Source: Promethearchaeota archaeon
GTDB taxonomy: Archaea > Asgardarchaeota > Lokiarchaeia > Sigyniarchaeales > SOKP01
Direction of reading: 5' to 3'
DNA: 10,898 nucleotides
Assembly (NCBI GenBank): GCA_048938445.1
Contig: JBHLME010000142.1
Span: forward strand, 1-10,898
The position numbers were made by a program, and so were the translations under genes. Below are positions 2 to 10,870 of the stretch, one piece after another. The notes beneath the pieces were generated by a model. It did no database searches and was not told the origin of the DNA. It was given only the letters and a program-made list of their open reading frames with translations. Within the stretch, counting starts at the first letter, position 1. Each line of letters starts with the position of its first letter.

Positions 2-82
2 AGCGTCTTTTATTTTTTAGCGTGGATTTTTGCGATTTTAGGAATCTTTAGTGCCTACTTGGGATATATCCAACCAAAATAA
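2..82 (+). CDS. 3' end of a membrane protein gene running in from the left edge (partial)
   Basis: Frame 2 reads SVFYFLAWIFAILGIFSAYLGYIQPK then TAA at 80-82. One hydrophobic helix, convergent with the 126..317 gene. Not in the ORF track because it is truncated. Confidence 0.65.
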   Translation, partial: SVFYFLAWIFAILGIFSAYLGYIQPK

Positions 83-125
83 GATGAATAATTTCTCCTA
101 TATACTTTTTAAAATTCAGAGGATA

Positions 126-317
126 TTATCTCTTTAAACTGGCACTAAACCGTCGTTTTTCTTCAATTGAGAGGATTTCATCATCCGCATAAAATTTAAA
201 ATCGCTTTTATTGAACTCCAAATTACAATTAGGACAATCAAAAGTATCATCATAATTAATGATATTATTGTTGCCACATCGAGGACAATGATATAAATCG
301 TCTTTTTTTGAAGTCAT
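126..317 (-). CDS. Small zinc-ribbon protein (CPxCG type), 63 aa
   Basis: CPRCG-x12-CPNC four-cysteine motif. A TATA-like TATATAAA lies about 25-33 nt upstream on the minus strand. Confidence 0.8.
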   Translation of the reverse strand: MTSKKDDLYHCPRCGNNNIINYDDTFDCPNCNLEFNKSDFKFYADDEILSIEEKRRFSASLKR

Positions 318-1048: not shown

Positions 1049-3265
1049 TTAATAATCTAACTGTTCACCAAGAGCCATTCTAGCTAGATCGCTTAGGAAA
1101 TAAGATTTCATTCCTTTTGCACCAATTTTACGTTCAAGAGTATCCTTACACATTGGACAATTAAAAATACATATCTCCGCGCCATGTTCTACCATATCTT
1201 TAACATTTTTATTTTGAGTTGGTCTTACTAACTTGTTTTTACCTTTTAAAGGAAAGGATGCGGCACAACATAGGGCATTTTCTCGATCATACTCACGCTG
1301 AACTCTTTCTACTCCTATTAATTCACAAATTTTATCCACCCACTCATCAGTTTCAGGTACGTATCTATTCGAGCAATTTCTTTGATATGCAGCTTTTATA
1401 TTTAATTTAGATATTTCCGATTCATGGTCCTTTAAGTAATTATACACATATTCAAAGATATGAACTGGCTTAAATGGTTGCTCAATATTATTTCTTTGGC
1501 AATAGGATGTATATAAACCATAGCATTCATCATGCCAGCATATAACCTCAGTATCCTTTTTAACTCCAGTCTTTTTAAAATTATCTATTATGATTGGAAC
1601 TCTTTCTTTTATGATTGACGGCAATGCTAAGTGCTGATACATCAAATTGCAGAAAAAATCACGTCCACTTAAGTATTGTAAATTATCAAACATTGGCCCC
1701 ATCATTTCTTTTGAATTGCTCTTAAAGAATAAACATTTATTTAAAACGGGTTTAGATGGATCGATGTCTTTAATTCTAATCTCGTCATGCGGTTCATACA
1801 TTTTTATTGAATTTTGTATAACAGCAGGATTACAATCTAAAGTTTTATAACGCTCTTGCAATTCATTTATGAGATCAAATGGATGAGCTCCATATGGACA
1901 ATATTCATCACAACTAAAGCACCCTAAACATTCTGTCAGCACTCGAGAATCTTGATCTTCATTTATTAATTTATTAATTTCTACTCTTGCGGCTTCAGTA
2001 TTCTCAAATTCTATATATTGACAACGTGTTAAACAGTCAATATTTTCACAATTTACACAATTTGATTTGTTAAAAATCATTTTCACCTCTGCTTTTTCAA
2101 TTATTTCATAATCTAATTGATCTAATAATTCTATTAAATCTAATATTTCAAAATTCATGTTAAATTTCTTATTGGCATCGTATAAATTTGTCCTACAAAA
2201 GGGACATGTGGATACTACTATCGAAGCACCCGTCTGTTTCGCTTCATCTAATCGCTCTTTAGAAATTTCTACAGACCAATCAGGATATCCAATTTTTACA
2301 CCTCCTCCCGCACCACAACACCACGCATTTTCTTTATTTCTTTTCATCTCTATAAGAGAAACACCTGGTATCTGTTTCAATATCTCTCTTGGAGGTTCAT
2401 AAAAATTTGAATGTCTTCCAAGATGACATGGATCATGGTATGTAATTATTTTTATAAATTCTGACTTAAATTTAATTCTCTTATCTTTTAAAAATTGATT
2501 AATTATTTCAGTCACGTGGTATATTTCTAAATTATGCTCAACTCCTTTCTTATAAAAATCCTCTTTTAAAGTTCTATAACACCCTGCACAAGAGGTTATG
2601 ACTTTCGAAGCTCCTGCTTTAAATATCTCTTGAATATTATAATTCATAAAATCTTTAACTGGATTTAATTGTCCTGTTCTTAAAAGGGGACTCGTACAGC
2701 AGTGTTCATCAATTAATGTAAAATCAATACTTGACTTTTTCAAAAACGCTATTGTTGCATCTCTTAAATTTTTTTGTCTATAATTTGAAGTGCAACCAAT
2801 AAAGTATACCCATTCAGCTTCATCTGGAAGGTCATATTTCTCCTTTAAATTGTCATTATCAGAATTGACTTCTCCATAGGGATTAAAATAGTTTGGATTC
2901 ATTGTTCTTTTTAGCAAGTTAGAATGATTTTCAGGACAAAACCCATTCAAAACTGCTTCATTTCTTCCCATTTCTATGAAATCAACAAGAAAATGATTGA
3001 ATTTATCGAACCTACAATTTTCCATGCAATTTCCACATGTAGAACAGGAATAAATAACATTAGCAACCCCAGAATTCCATTGAAGCTCACCTTTAATCAA
3101 ACTATAAATTAACCACAATCTTCCTCCAGTGCTGTATGTTTCAAACCTATATTTTTTATAACTAGGACAATTAATTTCAGAAAAATCATAGGTATACTTA
3201 CAATAACCACATCGAAAACATCGATGTATAATATCCTTCCAGTCTGTAATGGAAATTTGTGTCAA
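1049..3265 (-). CDS. (Fe-S)-binding oxidoreductase made of two fused HdrD/GlcF-like units, each with a ferredoxin-like part and two CCG domains, 738 aa
   Basis: Unit 1: CFRCGYC..CP, CSTCGNCMENC, FIGC, EHCC, SCAGC, YHDPCHLGR, WCCGAGGG, TCPFC. Unit 2 from Met396: CVNC..CLTRC, CLGCFSCDEYCP, HDEC, QRNC, LCCAAS, NCPMC. TTG start preceded by GGAGGTGA inside the end of the upstream gene. Confidence 0.92.
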   Translation of the reverse strand: MTQISITDWKDIIHRCFRCGYCKYTYDFSEINCPSYKKYRFETYSTGGRLWLIYSLIKGELQWNSGVANVIYSCSTCGNCMENCRFDKFNHFLVDFIEMGRNEAVLNGFCPENHSNLLKRTMNPNYFNPYGEVNSDNDNLKEKYDLPDEAEWVYFIGCTSNYRQKNLRDATIAFLKKSSIDFTLIDEHCCTSPLLRTGQLNPVKDFMNYNIQEIFKAGASKVITSCAGCYRTLKEDFYKKGVEHNLEIYHVTEIINQFLKDKRIKFKSEFIKIITYHDPCHLGRHSNFYEPPREILKQIPGVSLIEMKRNKENAWCCGAGGGVKIGYPDWSVEISKERLDEAKQTGASIVVSTCPFCRTNLYDANKKFNMNFEILDLIELLDQLDYEIIEKAEVKMIFNKSNCVNCENIDCLTRCQYIEFENTEAARVEINKLINEDQDSRVLTECLGCFSCDEYCPYGAHPFDLINELQERYKTLDCNPAVIQNSIKMYEPHDEIRIKDIDPSKPVLNKCLFFKSNSKEMMGPMFDNLQYLSGRDFFCNLMYQHLALPSIIKERVPIIIDNFKKTGVKKDTEVICWHDECYGLYTSYCQRNNIEQPFKPVHIFEYVYNYLKDHESEISKLNIKAAYQRNCSNRYVPETDEWVDKICELIGVERVQREYDRENALCCAASFPLKGKNKLVRPTQNKNVKDMVEHGAEICIFNCPMCKDTLERKIGAKGMKSYFLSDLARMALGEQLDY
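2083..2089 (-). promoter_or_regulatory. Internal Shine-Dalgarno GAGGTGA before the in-frame ATG at 2080
   Basis: Minus strand GCAGAGGTGAAAATGATT, exactly at the boundary between the two Fe-S units. Confidence 0.6.
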
Positions 3266-3266
3266 T

Positions 3267-4637
3267 TCATGTCACCTCCCAATTTCCAGGATTCATAATA
3301 CCATTTGGATCTAAAGTATCTTTAATTGTTTTCAGGAGAGCTTTATAACTCGGTTTAATTTTTTCTAAGATTAATTTCTGTCCGTCTAATTCTACTTTCC
3401 ATGGTATTCCCCCCAATTCTAAGGCCAATTCATTCGTTTCATGGAGTGCCTTACGAGCATTTTCCATTTCTTTAGGATCTGCTCTGTTGAATGAATAGGA
3501 AAAAAACACGATTACAGTATGAGTTCCACTCATTAGTCTAGAACCAAGTGTTGGAATAATTCCATATTTTTTTGAAATTTCTGCACCTTTTAGATAACAT
3601 TCAGGCACATTTTCTAAGGGCATAAAAGCACCAACGTATTCAAAACCTCCTCCTTTACGATAATCGGCAGCAGCGGCAGCAAAAATGGGTTTCTCCATAT
3701 AAGCATTATGAAATTTTTCAGGTGCTTTCATAAATCTACATTTATTTTTACGATATATTTTTTTTAATATCTTAATCTGTCTCTGGATGTCATCTTCAGA
3801 ATCTCCCGTGATATAAGTCATAAGAAAGATGTAACCTTTCATCCATTCAGGTTTATCTTGCATTCCTATCAGAATATCTTCAGCCATATTAGTCTCTGTA
3901 ATTTTTAATAAAATATTAGGTATGTCGTTAGGATCCTTAAGTAATCCATTTACAATATCGCGAAATTTCGGTTTAGGATAAAGCTTAATTGAAAGTTTTG
4001 TAATAATTCCCATAGTTCCAAATGAACTTGTAAATAATCCAATAAAATCTGGGAGAGGCCCTCTTGAAAACCAATAATCAGAAAGCGCGCATGATCCTAA
4101 ATTACAAATTTCTCCGGTCGGTAAAATAAGTTCTAAACCATTAATCATTGATCCATGATCACCATGACGTTGAGATAGATATCCTGATCCATGAATTAAA
4201 ACATTACCCGCAATTGTAGCAGAAGGGGGTGCATCTGGAATGGGAGGTTCTAATTGAGGATGATTTTCATTTAAATATGACAACAATTGTCCTGTAGTAA
4301 CTCCTGCTTCCATCAACGCATATCGACTCGATTCATTTATTTCAATGATCTTATTCATTCTTTTCATATCGATAATTATACCCCCTTTTACTGGCACGAC
4401 TAATGCACTAAGTGTTAATCCCCCACCCATTGGAATTAAAGGTATCTTATGTTCATTAGCAAATTTAACTATTTGTTGAACTTCGCTTGTTGTTTCTGGA
4501 ATGACCACGAAATCCACTGGTCTTGGTAATGATGCGCCAGGATCCATTGAATATATATGCAAATCTTCTTCTTTATTAGATACAAATTCTTTCCCAACAA
4601 TTTCATTAAGCTTTTTAAAAATTTCATTATCATTCAT
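3267..4637 (-). CDS. FAD-binding oxidoreductase, VAO/PCMH superfamily (GlcD-like architecture), 456 aa
   Basis: PVDFVVIPETTSEVQ, PMGGGLTLS, IDMKRMNKI, EAGV, ATIAGN, GLELILPTG, GTMGIITK and C-terminal LDPNGIMNPG. Coupled to a CCG-domain Fe-S gene as in glcD/glcF-type pairs. Confidence 0.92.
   Translation of the reverse strand: MNDNEIFKKLNEIVGKEFVSNKEEDLHIYSMDPGASLPRPVDFVVIPETTSEVQQIVKFANEHKIPLIPMGGGLTLSALVVPVKGGIIIDMKRMNKIIEINESSRYALMEAGVTTGQLLSYLNENHPQLEPPIPDAPPSATIAGNVLIHGSGYLSQRHGDHGSMINGLELILPTGEICNLGSCALSDYWFSRGPLPDFIGLFTSSFGTMGIITKLSIKLYPKPKFRDIVNGLLKDPNDIPNILLKITETNMAEDILIGMQDKPEWMKGYIFLMTYITGDSEDDIQRQIKILKKIYRKNKCRFMKAPEKFHNAYMEKPIFAAAAADYRKGGGFEYVGAFMPLENVPECYLKGAEISKKYGIIPTLGSRLMSGTHTVIVFFSYSFNRADPKEMENARKALHETNELALELGGIPWKVELDGQKLILEKIKPSYKALLKTIKDTLDPNGIMNPGNWEVT
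3272..3279 (-). promoter_or_regulatory. Shine-Dalgarno GGAGGTGA for the TTG start at 3265
   Basis: Minus strand GGGAGGTGACATGAATTGACA. There is a 1-nt gap between the upstream TGA and the TTG, consistent with translational coupling. Confidence 0.75.
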
Positions 4638-5351: not shown

Positions 5352-5879
5352 TTAATGCATGACCATTTTTGAATTAACAATTTTTTGGGTCATTTCTGTT
5401 AATGCATCAATAAAGATTTCATCAGAATAGTCTGAAAGTTCTATGAAAATTCCTCCATTCTCTTCAGTATCTCTCTTGATATTAGTTAAATCCAAAGATT
5501 CATCAATTTTTCCCTTATCTACACCTATTAATACATAAGGTATTTTTGTAATTAGTTCTTCATGAATTTCTTTAATTTGATCCTTAACTGCGCGATAACA
5601 CTCAGCATCTGATAAATCGAATGCAATTACAGCTCCCATCGCGCCTCTGTATAATGATTTTCTAAAAAACTTGAACGTTTCCTTCTCACAGATGTCCCAA
5701 AAAGATAAAGTTGCAATCTCTCCATCAAATAATTCAATATTTTTAATAAATACATTGACTCCTAAAGTAATACGATAATTACTCTCGAATGTAATTCCCA
5801 TTAATTCTCCGTAAGTGCTTTTTTTTTCATTAAAACCCCTATAATTAATGAAAATAAGCTTAAACTTGAAAGATTGCAT
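5352..5879 (-). CDS. Rab-like small GTPase-fold protein with degenerate nucleotide-binding motifs (pseudo-GTPase), 175 aa
   Basis: FKFKLIFI, FESNYRITLGVNV, TLSFWD, LYRGAMGAVIAFDLS and IPYVLIG match the Rab scaffold. G1, G3, G4 and G5 are all substituted. SD-like AAGGTTGA precedes the ATG. Confidence 0.85.
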   Translation of the reverse strand: MQSFKFKLIFINYRGFNEKKSTYGELMGITFESNYRITLGVNVFIKNIELFDGEIATLSFWDICEKETFKFFRKSLYRGAMGAVIAFDLSDAECYRAVKDQIKEIHEELITKIPYVLIGVDKGKIDESLDLTNIKRDTEENGGIFIELSDYSDEIFIDALTEMTQKIVNSKMVMH

Positions 5880-5935
5880 TCAACCTTATCTATTTCATTA
5901 AACTTGTCTAATTAATTTATTTATAGTGCTCTTAC

Positions 5936-5943
5936 TATTTAAA
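5936..5943 (-). promoter_or_regulatory. Putative TATA box (TTTAAATA) of the Rab-like gene
   Basis: Canonical archaeal TATA octamer on the minus strand. It would give a leader of roughly 30-35 nt containing the 5884-5899 motif. An alternative TTATATAA lies at 5958-5965. Confidence 0.35.
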
Positions 5944-6086
5944 CTATATACTCATTTTTATATAACGAAATAAAAATTTTCAAAAAACATTTTCAATATA
6001 TTTTATATTATTTGTCAAAACTCCCAATCAATTATATAAATATTTTTGAAATTTATATACATCAATGATACAACCATTTTTCTGTA

Positions 6087-6104
6087 AAGAAATAAGTATA
6101 TATA
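6087..6104 (+). promoter_or_regulatory. Putative BRE and TATA for the intergenic RNA
   Basis: Purine-rich AAGAAATAAG followed by TATATATA (6097-6104). The predicted start (~6127-6131) coincides with the 5' arm of the first helix. Confidence 0.4.
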
Positions 6105-6127
6105 CATAACTTTGATTATTTTACTAA

Positions 6128-6305
6128 AAAGGATAAGGTTATAAAAATCTAAAAAATGGTTCCTGCCATCATCCTGGATTTTTGTCTTTTGGTTAGTGTA
6201 GAGATGCACTTTAAATTTTCCTTATCCTATTTCATTTTAGGACTTCGTTGAAGTCCTGATGGCAGGGACCTCACTTAATAAAACTCAAGTAGTAAAATAG
6301 ATAAG
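6128..6305 (+). ncRNA. Candidate structured, pseudoknotted ncRNA of unknown family (domain 1)
   Basis: Helices 6130-6138/6220-6228 (9 bp), 6141-6150/6176-6185 (10 bp, 2 GU), 6195-6200/6205-6210 (GAGA tetraloop), 6237-6246/6250-6259 (10 bp, 1 GU) and 6158-6171/6257-6270 (14 bp, 1 GU). All imperfect pairs are G-U on the + strand. Confidence 0.6.
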
Positions 6306-6317
6306 TAGAAAGAGATC

Positions 6318-6434
6318 GAGAAAAAATAAAGTCCAAATAATCTTTCTAAAAATTGGGAGAGATATAAATTTTTTTTATTGTTGGGTAAACATTCAGGGGG
6401 AATTGTTTTTAATATTTTTGACTTTATTTTCCTC
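6318..6434 (+). ncRNA. Second stem-loop domain (three-way junction), possibly part of the same RNA
   Basis: Perfect 11 bp helix 6323-6333/6420-6430, extended by GAG/CTC, enclosing hairpins 6340-6347/6356-6363 (2 GU) and 6387-6394/6400-6408 (one bulge). Confidence 0.4.
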
Positions 6435-6515
6435 ATTTAAACATTAAAATTCATTCATATTTAAACGTAACTTTAATTCAATTGGATCTTGGAGTTATAG
6501 AAAGATAATTGATTT

Positions 6516-6532
6516 TAAAATAAAAAAAAAAA
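6516..6532 (-). terminator. Oligo-T terminator after the Frag1/DRAM-like gene
   Basis: A11 run at 6522-6532 on + (T11 on -), 3 nt beyond the stop codon. Confidence 0.55.
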
Positions 6533-6535
6533 GAT

Positions 6536-7249
6536 TTATCTAAATTTCACTAAGAGAAAAATACCTGTTTCAATAAACCAAATTAACAACGCAATAACTG
6601 CAATCCACTCCCAAATCCGAAAATTGTAGGTAGTTGGACTTGTATCAGTGATCATAAATACAAAATCAAAATTACTTGATATAAGGAGCGGGATACCTTG
6701 TACGAGAAAGATTATAAACACTAATCCCGCACTCAAACCTATAAATGGTTGAAATTTTGGAATATCCTTGTTGAGTAGCATTATAAAACTAAAGTTTCCA
6801 ATCATTAAACCAACATTAATGAAAAATATGGTTGCAGATATCGCATGATACAATGGATAATCAGCCATATTAAAAACAGTAAGGAAAAAGCCTCCTAATA
6901 ATGCGAATAATCCATTAGTTAAAGGAAGAAGTAACCAATTTTTCTGTTTTTTATTTCCAGGTAGCATTTTTCTAATTAAATCTATTATAAGAGGAATCGA
7001 GCATAATAACGTTGAAAACATTCCCATCATGAAAATAATTTGAGAACCATTTCTTGCAGCTCCAATACTCGAAATCCAAATAGATCCAATGGTCACTGGT
7101 GCTTCAGTAAAATGATATAACATTGTTCCTACTGATAACATGTAAATTAATAATATTCCTCCTAATATCCCAAAATATCCCCCTTTATATTTTTTTAAAG
7201 GTTTATCTAATCTTTTTGTATTAATTAAATCTATCATTAGATCTAACAT
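6536..7249 (-). CDS. Six-TM membrane protein, Frag1/DRAM/Sfk1-like or DUF998-like
   Basis: Six hydrophobic helices with WISSIG after TM1, YHAISATIFF at TM4 and IWEW at TM6, matching the ISxxG / H-x3-A-x2-FF / EW signature. The start is likely ATG 7249 (AAGGTG upstream). The longer 7357 extension is low-complexity, promoter-like AT sequence. Confidence 0.75.
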   Translation of the reverse strand: MLDLMIDLINTKRLDKPLKKYKGGYFGILGGILLIYMLSVGTMLYHFTEAPVTIGSIWISSIGAARNGSQIIFMMGMFSTLLCSIPLIIDLIRKMLPGNKKQKNWLLLPLTNGLFALLGGFFLTVFNMADYPLYHAISATIFFINVGLMIGNFSFIMLLNKDIPKFQPFIGLSAGLVFIIFLVQGIPLLISSNFDFVFMITDTSPTTYNFRIWEWIAVIALLIWFIETGIFLLVKFR

Positions 7250-7481
7250 TTCTATAAATACACCTTGGTTTCTATTATTTAAAAAATATATTGATAAATA
7301 GTACTTATTTTGATTTATTTGAATATAAATGTTTAATATTAACTGCTGAATTATCATTCAATGTTTTGAGAAAGAAAAAAATCAAATCATTATTATAAAT
7401 ATTAAATAATTCATTTAATATGCAATTAAGGCATATATTACTTCATATAATTATCAATGTTGAAAATGAATATTTAAAATA

Positions 7482-7898
7482 ATGATAGAGATTGAAAATG
7501 TTTATAATTTAGTTTGTATCATTTTGGGACTCTTAGTTATTGGAGAAGCAACAGCTTTATTAATTGGAATGAATCTTGCAGGAACGGGTGGTAAAGAATG
7601 GTTATCTATAAAAAATTATATCATTCTTATTTTTGATATAATGACTGGTTTATTAATAATTCCATTAATTATGAATATTTTTGATAAAAACTCAACAATA
7701 TTCCTCGTAATTCTTTTAATTTCTATATTTATTTTACATCTTTACAGAGATATAGAGTATTTTATGCCTATTATAAATAAATTCTGTATCAATTTTCCAC
7801 TTTTTGTATTTAATAACATTAAACTCATCTTATCGCTATTTTGTATTGGTATTAACATTTATATTCTTATAACCGTTGCCAAAATCAATCTTTATTAA
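7482..7898 (+). CDS. Four-TM hypothetical membrane protein, 138 aa
   Basis: Four hydrophobic stretches carrying polar residues (GEA, FD, HLYRDIEY, CINFPLFVFNNIK). Confidence 0.75.
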   Translation: MIEIENVYNLVCIILGLLVIGEATALLIGMNLAGTGGKEWLSIKNYIILIFDIMTGLLIIPLIMNIFDKNSTIFLVILLISIFILHLYRDIEYFMPIINKFCINFPLFVFNNIKLILSLFCIGINIYILITVAKINLY

Positions 7899-8350: not shown

Positions 8351-10870
8351 ATGTCTGAAAATGCTTCCAATTCAAAAAAATCGCGTAGTCAAAAAACCTC
8401 AGAAGAAGATGTTAGTCTAAAGGAAATAACCATTCCTGAATATAGACAAACGAGGGTTGATACTCTCAAGACCAAGATGAGTAGTAGAATTTCAAATCAG
8501 AAAAGAGTTTTGAGATTATACAGATCAAAAATAAATCAAAAAGTTAAATCGACATTAAATAAAATTAAGGATGTAATTTTTCCAAGGGATGTAGTATATA
8601 AAGATCAAGAACCTCCTAAATCTTTTGCTTTTAAGAAAGAATTTATTGGAATTTATGCATTTTTCATAATATATTCTTTAATATTGATATTTTATATTAA
8701 TATCCCTGATGAAACCTTTATCAGTATTTTTACCCTTGGGCGTCCTTATGAGTTTGGAACAACAATTCTTGCGTTTTTTCTTTTTTTGACATTTCTCCTT
8801 AGTATTAATAAAATCCGCTATTGGATCTTTGATAATGATAAATTGATTATTACCTACTTGAAACAAATAATAATATTTCCAATAGTATTTGTTATTTTGT
8901 TCATAATACTATCAACTTACATCCTTCCAGTATATAATATTACATCAATAATCCTCTTTTTATCAATGTTATGGCTTTTTCTTCTAAGTAGTAGATTTTA
9001 TTCGTATTCTCGTAGATTTTCAACTAATATTGAAGCTAAATTTATCACAAAATATTCAAAGTCTCGTTCTCTTGTTGCTTCATTAGGACCTATCTTTATA
9101 ATGGGATCTCTTGTCATGATTTCTTTATTTTATAGGACTTTTTTAGTTGTACTTGCTTTAGATATATTTAGTGTAACTGATCCTTTTGTTGCAATACAAG
9201 TATATTTCATTGAAATGCGGTTGATAATGCCTTTAATATATTTAAGTTTGATATTAACCTTCTTATTTATTATTTTTGAATTTATTTTTACTAGAAGAGT
9301 GGCGGAAACAAAAAGAGCAGGCAAATTCGATAATTTTACATTCTCCATGATTGTCTTTTTTATATTTTTTTTCCAATTAATGCAAGTGTCTCTATTTCTC
9401 TTTACACGTCCAGAAACTGTAGAAATCTTGAAGAAAGCATTTGGAACAACAACAGGAAGCACCATTTCTGCTTTTTTTTTGGTTGAATTCGTTATCACAA
9501 TGATCTTTCTTTTTAGAATATTGGTTAAAACCGGTAGAACTTTTGGATGGCGATTGTTATGGTTTAAAAAAGATGGTGTAGTCTTGTTAATTTTAACATG
9601 TGTATTTGCTCAAACTATTACTCAATATGCACGTTTATCACCAATAGAAAACTTTGATGTCAGGTTATTAGGATTGATAATAGATTTCAGCAAGTTTTTA
9701 ATCTCTATATTAATGATTATATTTTTGGGTTTTACTTTGGTTGTTTATTATCTTAAACCTCACGAGACTTCCGTGTTCATGAGAATGATGAAAGAGACGG
9801 TAAAAGAAGAAGAAAAAGAATCCGAACAAATTTATGGAATAATTAGAAACGAATATATTCGGAGAGGAGATGCCTTTAGCTTAGAGTCTATTGAAAGAGA
9901 AATGATAAAATCTACTAGATTACCAAAAGAAACTATTTATGAAATTATAGATCATTTAGGCGATAAACATTTTAATATTCATATCACCAAAAAAACTGAT
10001 GATACTGGGAAAATTGTCTCCCGAATTATTGATTTCGTTTCTATAACTGAAGTTTTTGAAAGAAAGGATCTAGCAAAAAAGAAGGCAAAAAAATACCTTT
10101 CAGAAAGATTATTTGATACCATGATAACAGAAAAGAAGCATATTAAATTAAGTGATGAAATTGATACTGAAAAAGCATCTGATTTATTCATATCATCTCT
10201 TTCTGCAGACTATAGCAAAAAAGTTAAGGAGAAAAAACAAGTTTCAATAAAGAAGAATAAAGCCCAACGGTTTCTCACGGCAAAACGCGATATATCAGAG
10301 GATATTAAACAAGAGATCATGGAAATTTTAAAAAAAGAATATCTATATCGTATTGAAAATAAAAAATTATTTCAAGACATTCATTATTCAATATCCGAGA
10401 TATCACCGGAAATACAGAAGAAGACAAAAATTACTATTGGGGAAATATATCCTCTTATAGAAGAATTATCAAAATTAGATAATGAAATTCGATTGATTGC
10501 AAATCCAGAGGATCAAAATGATAAGAAAATACAATTCTTTCCAATTTCCGATGATGCGATGTGTTTTGCTCTTACTAATTTTAGACCAGATGAGTATAAA
10601 GAAATCAGAGAGGAGATAAGGCAGAAATATATTCAAGATATAAAAGCAAGAAGAACATTAGCAATGCTAAAGAGCTTCAAAGAAGGAATCACAGAATCAA
10701 CTGACCAACAAAAGAATTGGCTTCAAATTTTAGATTATTTAATAAAAAATTATAATACATATAAAAATAATTATGTTAGTCTCCCAAGTAAATCAAAGCT
10801 TAATGATTTAATTTCAACTTTTCCACTAAATAAAAAAATAGATGTTTTTAATTTAGAAATAAAAAAATAA
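8351..10870 (+). CDS. Large polytopic membrane protein (~10 TM) with basic N-terminus and a C-terminal soluble region holding two winged-helix-like repeats, 839 aa
   Basis: About ten hydrophobic helices over aa ~98-468, then an internal repeat at aa ~492-565 and ~654-732. Confidence 0.85.
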   Translation: MSENASNSKKSRSQKTSEEDVSLKEITIPEYRQTRVDTLKTKMSSRISNQKRVLRLYRSKINQKVKSTLNKIKDVIFPRDVVYKDQEPPKSFAFKKEFIGIYAFFIIYSLILIFYINIPDETFISIFTLGRPYEFGTTILAFFLFLTFLLSINKIRYWIFDNDKLIITYLKQIIIFPIVFVILFIILSTYILPVYNITSIILFLSMLWLFLLSSRFYSYSRRFSTNIEAKFITKYSKSRSLVASLGPIFIMGSLVMISLFYRTFLVVLALDIFSVTDPFVAIQVYFIEMRLIMPLIYLSLILTFLFIIFEFIFTRRVAETKRAGKFDNFTFSMIVFFIFFFQLMQVSLFLFTRPETVEILKKAFGTTTGSTISAFFLVEFVITMIFLFRILVKTGRTFGWRLLWFKKDGVVLLILTCVFAQTITQYARLSPIENFDVRLLGLIIDFSKFLISILMIIFLGFTLVVYYLKPHETSVFMRMMKETVKEEEKESEQIYGIIRNEYIRRGDAFSLESIEREMIKSTRLPKETIYEIIDHLGDKHFNIHITKKTDDTGKIVSRIIDFVSITEVFERKDLAKKKAKKYLSERLFDTMITEKKHIKLSDEIDTEKASDLFISSLSADYSKKVKEKKQVSIKKNKAQRFLTAKRDISEDIKQEIMEILKKEYLYRIENKKLFQDIHYSISEISPEIQKKTKITIGEIYPLIEELSKLDNEIRLIANPEDQNDKKIQFFPISDDAMCFALTNFRPDEYKEIREEIRQKYIQDIKARRTLAMLKSFKEGITESTDQQKNWLQILDYLIKNYNTYKNNYVSLPSKSKLNDLISTFPLNKKIDVFNLEIKK

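Follow-up and report, generated by a model that had tools for sequence, protein, structure and literature searches.

A 10,898-nucleotide (nt) stretch from a Promethearchaeota archaeon (contig JBHLME010000142.1; "the window" refers to this whole stretch) carries at 6158-6275 on the plus strand a gene for a 118-nt structured small RNA, recognized by covariance models, paralogues and a consensus fold as the window's paralogue of a family-wide RNA. On balance, we read this gene as one paralogue of a family of structured small RNAs of ~120 nt without an Rfam match, whose complementarity to the leader of the neighbouring Ras-like gene is incidental and whose supposed target mimics form no switch. 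An initial annotation of the window had proposed a plus-strand antisense RNA dedicated to that neighbour and gated by two mimics of its mRNA. All strings quoted in that proposal are exact, with their coordinates, on a direct sequence check, and the interpretation as a whole is partly supported: we lean towards a new small-RNA family, with the neighbour-specific gated switch left without support.

Two covariance models, R1 (built from the six paralogues of the host genome) and R2 (built from 34 sequences of 12 genera), score 6158-6275 at full length, with 124.7 and 112.2 bits, respectively. The plus strand of 6120-6310 adopts a closed multi-helix fold of -48.3 kcal/mol (z = -3.2 versus shuffles), and the minimum free energy (MFE) of the RNA itself is -44.3 kcal/mol on the plus strand versus -32.2 kcal/mol on the minus strand, supporting the discrete plus-strand small RNA that had been claimed. 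A closing helix, P1, pairs 6158-6170 with 6258-6270 at a pair probability of 1.00. Within it on the same strand lie an invariant U-rich block, CUGGAUUUUUGUCUUUUGG (6174-6192), in a loop closed by a helix of 3 base pairs (bp); a hairpin with a GAGA loop, P3 (6195-6210; 6195-6200 with 6205-6210 in the MFE fold); a conserved, single-stranded, pyrimidine-rich segment, here called the seed (6211-6238, including 6220-6236), which is unpaired in the consensus fold; and a sequence-variable hairpin, P4 (6239-6257; 6239-6246 with 6250-6257 in the MFE fold). The anatomy shown for the family comprises an 11-13-bp closing helix, a short helix with the invariant 19-nt loop, a hairpin of GNRA type in many copies, a single-stranded segment of ~28 nt and the variable hairpin.

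Three helices covary strongly. In a 34-sequence alignment fitted to the covariance model, a procedure that favours the structure, standard pairs occupy 94.5% of 1027 cells, versus 84.6% after shuffling and 36-45% for slid partners; 23 of 31 pairs show two-sided changes, and the covariation score is 0.376 versus 0.04-0.07 for slid partners. Two-sided changes affect all 11 modelled pairs of P1 (97.8% of cells paired), all six of P3 (97% of cells paired) and six of the seven modelled in P4. RNAalifold, given a plain MAFFT alignment of the six paralogues, returns the same helices. G-U cells are frequent, and many of them would become mismatches if the minus strand were read, so that the plus strand gives the better structure. 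In 29 of 34 loci, the closing helix is followed by at least three consecutive T. G-U cells, MFE and T-runs together indicate that the plus strand is the functional strand of the RNA. The window copy itself has no T-run after the closing helix, and no open reading frame (ORF) of at least 50 amino acids (aa) occurs on the plus strand downstream of it before 7482.

Coding and other standard explanations for the locus were considered and set aside. A 64-aa minus-strand ORF (6015-6209) overlaps the gene and a conserved ATG precedes the helix, yet the helices covary as RNA; as read from the alignment, the stretch separating P1 from the invariant block varies by a 1-nt indel, which puts the block in different frames among paralogues, and their stops differ. 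ARAGORN found no transfer RNA (tRNA) or transfer-messenger RNA in the window.

The family is apparently undescribed. Rfam 15 yields 0 matches across the whole window at gathering thresholds; over 5850-6560, with E up to 10, the best match reaches 21.5 bits (E = 2.6) versus thresholds of 39-80 bits. A full-text literature search, mostly at the level of abstracts, returned no description of such an RNA. Small structured RNAs are a familiar kind, but this one appears to constitute a new family. To our knowledge, very few non-coding RNAs have been described in Asgard archaea beyond ribosomal RNA (rRNA), tRNA and the universal ribonucleoprotein (RNP) RNAs.

The host genome (G000; 4.63 Mb, 29.6% GC) holds six strong copies according to BLAST and the covariance models, the other five residing on contigs C8, C176, C208, C68 and C200. 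These paralogues are 75-82% identical and, apart from an A-rich region upstream, have no sequence in common beyond the RNA body; around the window copy there is no paralogy or repeat shared with the flanks of the other copies. With R1, the RNA is found in 23 of 24 genomes of the host's own family (f1), in 1 of 11 of a second family and in 0 of 5 from two others (f2-f4 in total, 1 of 16). With R2, it is found in 119 of 126 f1 genomes (~94%) versus 1 of 24 genomes from six other families of the class, and the lone match outside the family sits on a 1.8-kb contig of a 1150-contig bin. As judged from these genome sequences, the RNA is specific to one Promethearchaeota (Asgard archaea) family. Copy number ranges from 1 to 18 R2 matches per genome. 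Retention in ~94% of the sampled family genomes implies that the RNA must do something important there.

Several further copies deserve mention. A degenerate short copy in the host genome (G000:C57:10975-11070, plus strand), missed by the covariance models, lacks the P3 hairpin and consists of the invariant block with 2 mismatches and, directly after it, a seed that matches the window's 17-mer exactly. Among the 86 R1 matches listed, at least 8 lie within 300 nt of a contig start (e.g. G015:C65:9-132, G015:C80:1-119 and G011:C25:11-165), which suggests that near-identical copies may break assemblies and that copy numbers are underestimated. A divergent family member (37 bits with R2) stands at the end of an IMG/VR contig (L156, 224,826 bases; 42-139, minus strand). 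A viral element was rejected as an explanation: four IMG/VR contigs hold the invariant 19-mer, and only this one has an RNA-like match, the other three being without the RNA.

Synteny is kept for one copy: in 12 of 34 loci, spanning 9 genera, it lies between genes for a 124-aa membrane protein and a Tes-like radical SAM protein, accompanied by a gene for a 153-aa protein without a Pfam match. These conserved neighbours (membrane protein, 153-aa protein and lipid synthase) offer no RNA-related clue. The window copy is not this syntenic copy. It is a lineage-specific and somewhat atypical paralogue, present in G000 and absent at the syntenic locus of two congeners (G002:C89 and G004:C114), where both flanking genes and the TATA block of the Ras-like gene are kept and the intergenic region is ~300 nt shorter and without the RNA.

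The most constrained part of the RNA is the 19-nt block, which is essentially invariant: aligned rows are identical except for one U for C and one missing G, and the 3 bp that close it vary only by wobble-compatible changes. Public genomes contain the exact 19-mer in at least 117 stretches, and nearly all of these belong to Promethearchaeota metagenome-assembled genomes (MAGs) or to entries for an uncultured archaeon. No complementary partner of the block was found in G000, where the 31 matches at up to 3 mismatches comprise the six RNA genes, one degenerate copy and otherwise unrelated sites; a guide RNA with a long partner for this block was rejected on that ground.

The seed is the second conserved module. 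Partition-function folds of four transcript versions give 6220-6236 an unpaired probability of 0.77-0.79. In most family members the seed reads GCCCUCCU(UAUCC/CCCCC)UAUUU; the segment between P3 and P4 has GAUUUcGCCCUCCU followed by UAUUU, the two being separated by UUAUCC in the window's genus and by CCCCC in most others. Most copies contain the anti-Shine-Dalgarno core CCUCC within a conserved CCCUCCU that is single-stranded in the consensus fold, and the 16S rRNA 3' end of a family member ends GGAUCACCUCC, with CCUCC as its core. The family as a whole displays an accessible conserved segment complementary to ribosome-binding sites; in the window copy, 4 nt and the CCUCC core of the seed have been lost. 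The earlier identification of 6220-6236 as a pairing-capable segment stands, in that it is conserved, predicted to be single-stranded, pyrimidine-rich and of a kind able to pair with ribosome-binding regions. In G000, AAGGAGG occurs at -20 to -3 of 37 ORF starts versus 3.3 expected, an 11-fold enrichment.

For the mode of action we tentatively propose, at somewhat less than even confidence, a trans-acting riboregulator whose exposed C/U-rich segment would pair with purine-rich ribosome-binding regions of mRNAs. Transcription would start at a conserved G ~26 nt downstream of a TATA-like element and end at the T-run after the closing helix. The CCUCC present in most copies would then pair with Shine-Dalgarno-type sites, and the invariant U-rich loop would serve as a protein-binding or tertiary-structure module.

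The complementarity that gave rise to the switch proposal lies in the leader of the gene for the 175-aa Ras-family protein (5352-5879, minus strand), whose ATG reads CAT at 5877-5879. A leader segment, CCTTATCTATTTCATT (5884-5899), recurs with one extra C as CCTTATCCTATTTCATT (6220-6236), and on the minus strand the leader sequence from -5 to -20 relative to the ATG complements the seed at 16 of 17 positions, with one bulge. A TATA box, TTTAAATA, occupies 5936-5943 on the minus strand, 57-64 nt ahead of the ATG; with the spacing usual in archaea between TATA box and transcription start, the leader would measure ~34 nt. The surrounding block, ctatttaaactat, is identical in G000, G002 and G004. 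Regions preceding ORF starts are enriched for TTTAAATA, and the general TATA consensus of the genome is TTTAAATA(G).

Whether the match exceeds chance depends on how it is viewed, and the outcome is mixed. As a same-strand repeat it has many equals: 373 of 2985 random genome segments (12.5%) score as well when a 118-nt segment is compared with its flanks of 500 nt on either side. As an RNA duplex it ranks high. Positions -46 to +3 were compared with the single-stranded segment of the RNA for all 4194 ORFs with 100 aa or more; the Ras-like leader took rank 24 (-17.7 kcal/mol), or rank 9 (-20.6 kcal/mol) with the compared interval shifted by a few bases, placing it in the top 0.2-0.6%. The match is good, not unique, and its apparent significance depends on a test chosen after the fact. 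Allowing at most one edit, the 17-mer has five sites genome-wide, namely itself, one paralogue, the degenerate C57 copy (where it recurs exactly), the Ras-like leader and one other.

Comparison with paralogues and orthologous loci speaks to specificity. Among the other five paralogues, none of 13 neighbouring leaders is complementary to the seed of its own RNA, the best rank being 804 of 4194. The segment of the Ras-like leader that is complementary to the seed is not conserved in the G002 and G004 orthologues. A neighbour-specific switch had been expected to persist in orthologous loci, with co-variation of leader and antisense segment as the check and retention of the RNA with loss of complementarity as the refutation; G002:C89 and G004:C114 present the mirror image of that refutation, with the gene kept and both the RNA and the complementary leader gone. 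Dedicated regulation of the adjacent gene finds no support either, 6220-6236 being a motif of all paralogues and of other genera. A family-wide motif, the absence of the RNA and of the complementary leader from two syntenic loci and 0 of 13 complementary neighbour leaders together argue that the seed is not tailored to the Ras-like gene. We therefore consider the 16/17 match quite probably incidental, the Ras-like mRNA being at most one of many possible targets. More generally, a short complementarity beside an RNA that exists in many copies says little in favour of a local switch before paralogues and orthologous loci have been examined.

The two mimics invoked for gating are promoter and intergenic DNA, not switch parts. 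The first, AGGATAAGG (6130-6138), and the overlapping string quoted as a leader match, GATAAGGTT (6132-6140), fall in the probable promoter of the RNA gene (6127-6157, plus strand), a region where sister copies have TATA-like elements. Mimic 1 is placed at -28 to -20 of the conserved first G, at the TATA position; sister copies carry A-rich, TATA-like elements of the ATAAAATAGG type at about -36 to -10, and the upstream regions of the paralogues show no conservation beyond this A-rich TATA-like region. The second mimic, AAATAGATAAG (6295-6305, plus strand), is intergenic DNA 25 nt past the closing helix, in a stretch alignable to the RNA-less syntenic loci of G002 and G004. On paper, cis duplexes of the seed with 6130-6138 and 6295-6305 reach -15.4 and -9.6 kcal/mol; across four transcript versions, the expected ensemble base pairs with the seed are 0.25-0.44 and 0.00, respectively. 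Both mimics are outside the conserved RNA and their ensemble pairing with the seed is negligible, leaving the proposed gating unsupported.

Several observations weigh against the reading we favour. The transcription of the RNA, its start and its end are inferred from sequence, the 20 sequencing runs listed for 5700-6500 all being DNA, from sediment or soil metagenomes, and the pairing of CCUCC with Shine-Dalgarno-type sites is predicted only. Of 4179 crude ORF starts, only 94 have GGAGG at -20 to -3, which would make targets led by a Shine-Dalgarno sequence a minority. A search of G000 for an extended target (16-mer, at most 2 mismatches) matches only the RNA genes and one site within an ORF; across 41 family genomes, complements of the CCCCC-type seed are, by eye, no commoner than a reversed-pattern control once RNA genes are subtracted. 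The high duplex rank of the Ras-like leader and the position of its match (-5 to -20) inside the predicted 5' untranslated region (UTR) count against an incidental match, as does the divergence of the seed among paralogues, which is what target-specialised sibling RNAs would show. Finally, the 70 nt upstream of the RNA pair with its own seed better than expected at 33 loci, with a mean of -10.2 kcal/mol versus -6.8 for shuffled upstream sequence, -7.2 for the own downstream sequence and -6.35 for AT-rich genome windows, and 33% of the 33 loci fall in the best 5%. The upstream partner usually coincides with the TATA position (-36 to -10; 6122-6148 in the window, and 32 other loci). This self-complementarity probably arises because the segment has a U/A-rich 3' part (CCUAUUUUAUUU) that is complementary to a TATA-like box.

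The strongest competitor to mRNA pairing, which we nonetheless hold unlikely, is an RNP scaffold in which the U-rich loop and the C/U-rich segment bind a protein, such as an Sm/Lsm ring, and no mRNA is paired. The block contains AUUUUUG, the core of the Sm-site consensus of eukaryotic small nuclear RNAs (snRNAs), AAUUUUUGG, as quoted in PMC5587771, and the invariant GAUUUUUGU in the loop between P1 and P3 agrees with 7 of the 9 positions of that consensus. This likeness to an Sm site is only a lead. The absence of a complementary partner for the block in the genome fits a scaffold; so does the persistence of 19 invariant nt across 12 genera while the helices drift, which suggests recognition by a conserved partner, and near-universal presence with one syntenic copy is housekeeping-like. 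Against it, no partner protein emerged among the syntenic neighbours. LSM-domain proteins number 3-5 per genome in the host phylum, with five matches in G000, and none shares the distribution of the RNA when genomes of the family are compared with those of the class. A family-specific Sm protein was tried and rejected: a weak fourth LSM class at first appeared confined to f1, and a search with the protein itself, which combines Lsm and Lsm_C, then found it in f2 (12 of 13) as well as in every other family of the class. In the host genome this protein has 142 aa (G000:C28:34537-34965, plus strand; Pfam Lsm_C 8.2e-13, LSM 2.5e-05), and it is found in 134 of 151 class genomes.

A smaller chance attaches to a second alternative, that no gating occurs and the window paralogue nevertheless pairs with the Ras-like mRNA in vivo as one target, through a recent, species-specific link. 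We keep this small chance on account of the high duplex rank and of the site inside the predicted UTR, here estimated at ~34 nt; the seeds of the paralogues have also diversified. On the other side, 8-23 other leaders pair equally well or better, and the complementarity is not conserved in congeners. The C at 6234 that pairs with the leader's G is common to the C57 and C68 copies and is thus not an adaptation to the Ras-like leader.

Improbable, though of consequence if true, is a combination in which an Sm/Lsm ring would bind the Sm-site-like loop (GAUUUUUGUCUUUUGG) and present the anti-Shine-Dalgarno-like segment to mRNAs, as an Hfq-like or snRNA-like guide system. In this arrangement the paralogues would be carriers of diversified guides, and the window copy could be tuned to the mRNA of the neighbouring pseudo-GTPase. 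Eukaryotes' closest prokaryotic relatives would then possess chaperoned RNA guides.

The gated antisense RNA as first proposed, in which 6220-6236 blocks the ribosome-binding region of the Ras-like gene and 6130-6138 or 6295-6305 locks the seed in cis, is very improbable. The 16/17 complementarity over -5 to -20, the leader rank of 9-24 among 4194, the single-stranded seed and the paper duplex with 6130-6138 speak for it, but RNA and complementarity are both missing from the syntenic loci of the two congeners, the seed is a family-wide motif, the 13 other neighbour leaders lack complementarity, the flank-repeat null is reached by 12.5% of segments, and the mimics sit outside the RNA body with next to no ensemble pairing.

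Least credible of all are a mobile element and the two alternatives offered with the initial proposal. A non-autonomous element resembling a miniature inverted-repeat transposable element (MITE), with the closing helix as terminal inverted repeats, would explain the multiple copies and the presence or absence at the window locus, in keeping with 1-18 copies per genome, ~300 extra bases relative to the two congeners and several matches less than 300 nt from a contig start; but the arms covary (11 of 11 helix pairs) with wobble pairs on one strand only, the copies are old at just 75-82% identity, their flanks are unique and without a shared repeat, one copy is syntenic across 9 genera, and the flanking ORFs examined include no transposase. 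A long minus-strand Ras-like leader with anti-Shine-Dalgarno and decoy elements is contradicted by the strand-specific G-U wobbles, the plus-strand T-runs and the conserved TATA box 57-64 nt ahead of the ATG, and the entire 300-nt stretch is missing from the orthologues; the four GATAAG cores proposed as DNA sites, which do cluster in 5885-6305 (421 nt, where ~0.27 would be expected by arithmetic from the window mean), are not conserved, the UUAUCC of the window's genus being CCCCC (GGGGG on the other strand) in other genera, nor is GATAAG enriched window-wide, since 17 of 200 shuffles reach the observed 11 sites (7.0 +- 2.6 expected).

Bacterial sibling small RNAs such as RsaE/RoxS, LhrC1-5 and the streptococcal csRNAs use C/U-rich seeds to occlude ribosome-binding sites. 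The Asgard RNA resembles them in its diverged paralogues per genome, its compact stem-loop form, its exposed pyrimidine-rich anti-Shine-Dalgarno stretch and its stand-alone gene with a T-run, as predicted here. Unlike them, it belongs to an archaeal host with low Shine-Dalgarno use in the genome, shows no homology in sequence or structure (no Rfam match), has a closing helix that joins its ends and an invariant 19-nt U-rich loop, and has targets that are here predicted only. Among Sm-class RNAs, U7 carries a variant type of Sm site, and archaeal SmAP/Lsm rings bind U-rich sites. The invariant AUUUUUG of the Asgard RNA likewise lies in a U-rich stretch between helices, and LSM-domain proteins occur in the host phylum; in contrast, just 7 of 9 positions follow the consensus, the loop is closed by 3 bp and no lineage-specific Sm protein co-occurs.

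As in neighbour-directed antisense RNAs, the RNA gene has a gene with a pairable leader close by, at 279 nt and in divergent orientation; unlike cis-encoded or neighbour-directed antisense RNAs, it does not overlap its supposed target, and the adjacency is neither conserved nor seen for other paralogues. MITEs share with this gene its small size, multiple copies, inverted-repeat ends and presence or absence at the window locus; it differs from them in covarying arms with one-strand wobbles, old and diverged copies, one of them syntenic, unshared flanks and no target duplication (a point not checked in detail). The covariance model, the conserved syntenic copy and the candidate modules give a handle on post-transcriptional control in a Promethearchaeota lineage, and the family can be used to ask whether RNAs pair with the help of Sm/Lsm proteins in this lineage.

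The Ras-like neighbour itself is of some interest. Its product has degenerate nucleotide-binding motifs (Pfam Ras 1.1e-15, with the match starting from profile position 23): in the translation, the GxxxxGK[ST] P-loop is missing, WDICEKE stands in the place of DxxG, and GVDKGK stands in the place of NKxD. From these motifs, the protein is likely a pseudo-GTPase. Both the start and the N-terminus of the protein are conserved in G002 and G004. Elsewhere in the genome, a gene for a 474-aa Ras-family GTPase follows another paralogue of the RNA at a distance of 57 nt and in the same orientation (G000:C68:5480-7080, minus strand); the leader of this gene is not complementary. Ras-family genes thus adjoin two of the six copies in G000; the flanks of the 34 loci show no recurring Ras cluster.

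A 5S rRNA was also considered as the identity of the RNA, which resembles 5S rRNA (RF00001) in its ~120-nt length, its end-joining helix and its internal arms; the canonical RF00001 model finds nothing in G000. The candidate was rejected on a different fold and sequence, the lack of an RF00001 match at the locus, and the existence of a separate divergent 5S-like gene in the family and in G000. The 5S rRNA of f1 is very divergent: besides the lack of a match in G000, RF00001 gives only sub-threshold matches (26-33 bits) in 7 of 24 family genomes, versus 53-69 bits in 9 of 11 genomes of a sister family. The weak f1 matches carry 5S-like signatures, and one has a homologue at G000:C208:26676-26766.

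Three other ORFs in the window have no Pfam family at E up to 0.01, namely 8351-10870 (plus strand, 839 aa), 6536-7357 (minus strand, 273 aa) and 7482-7898 (plus strand, 138 aa). A minus-strand gene pair at 1049-4637 encodes a 738-aa CCG/4Fe-4S (HdrD-like) protein and a 456-aa FAD-linked oxidase, the latter with 59-80% identity across many Promethearchaeota MAGs.

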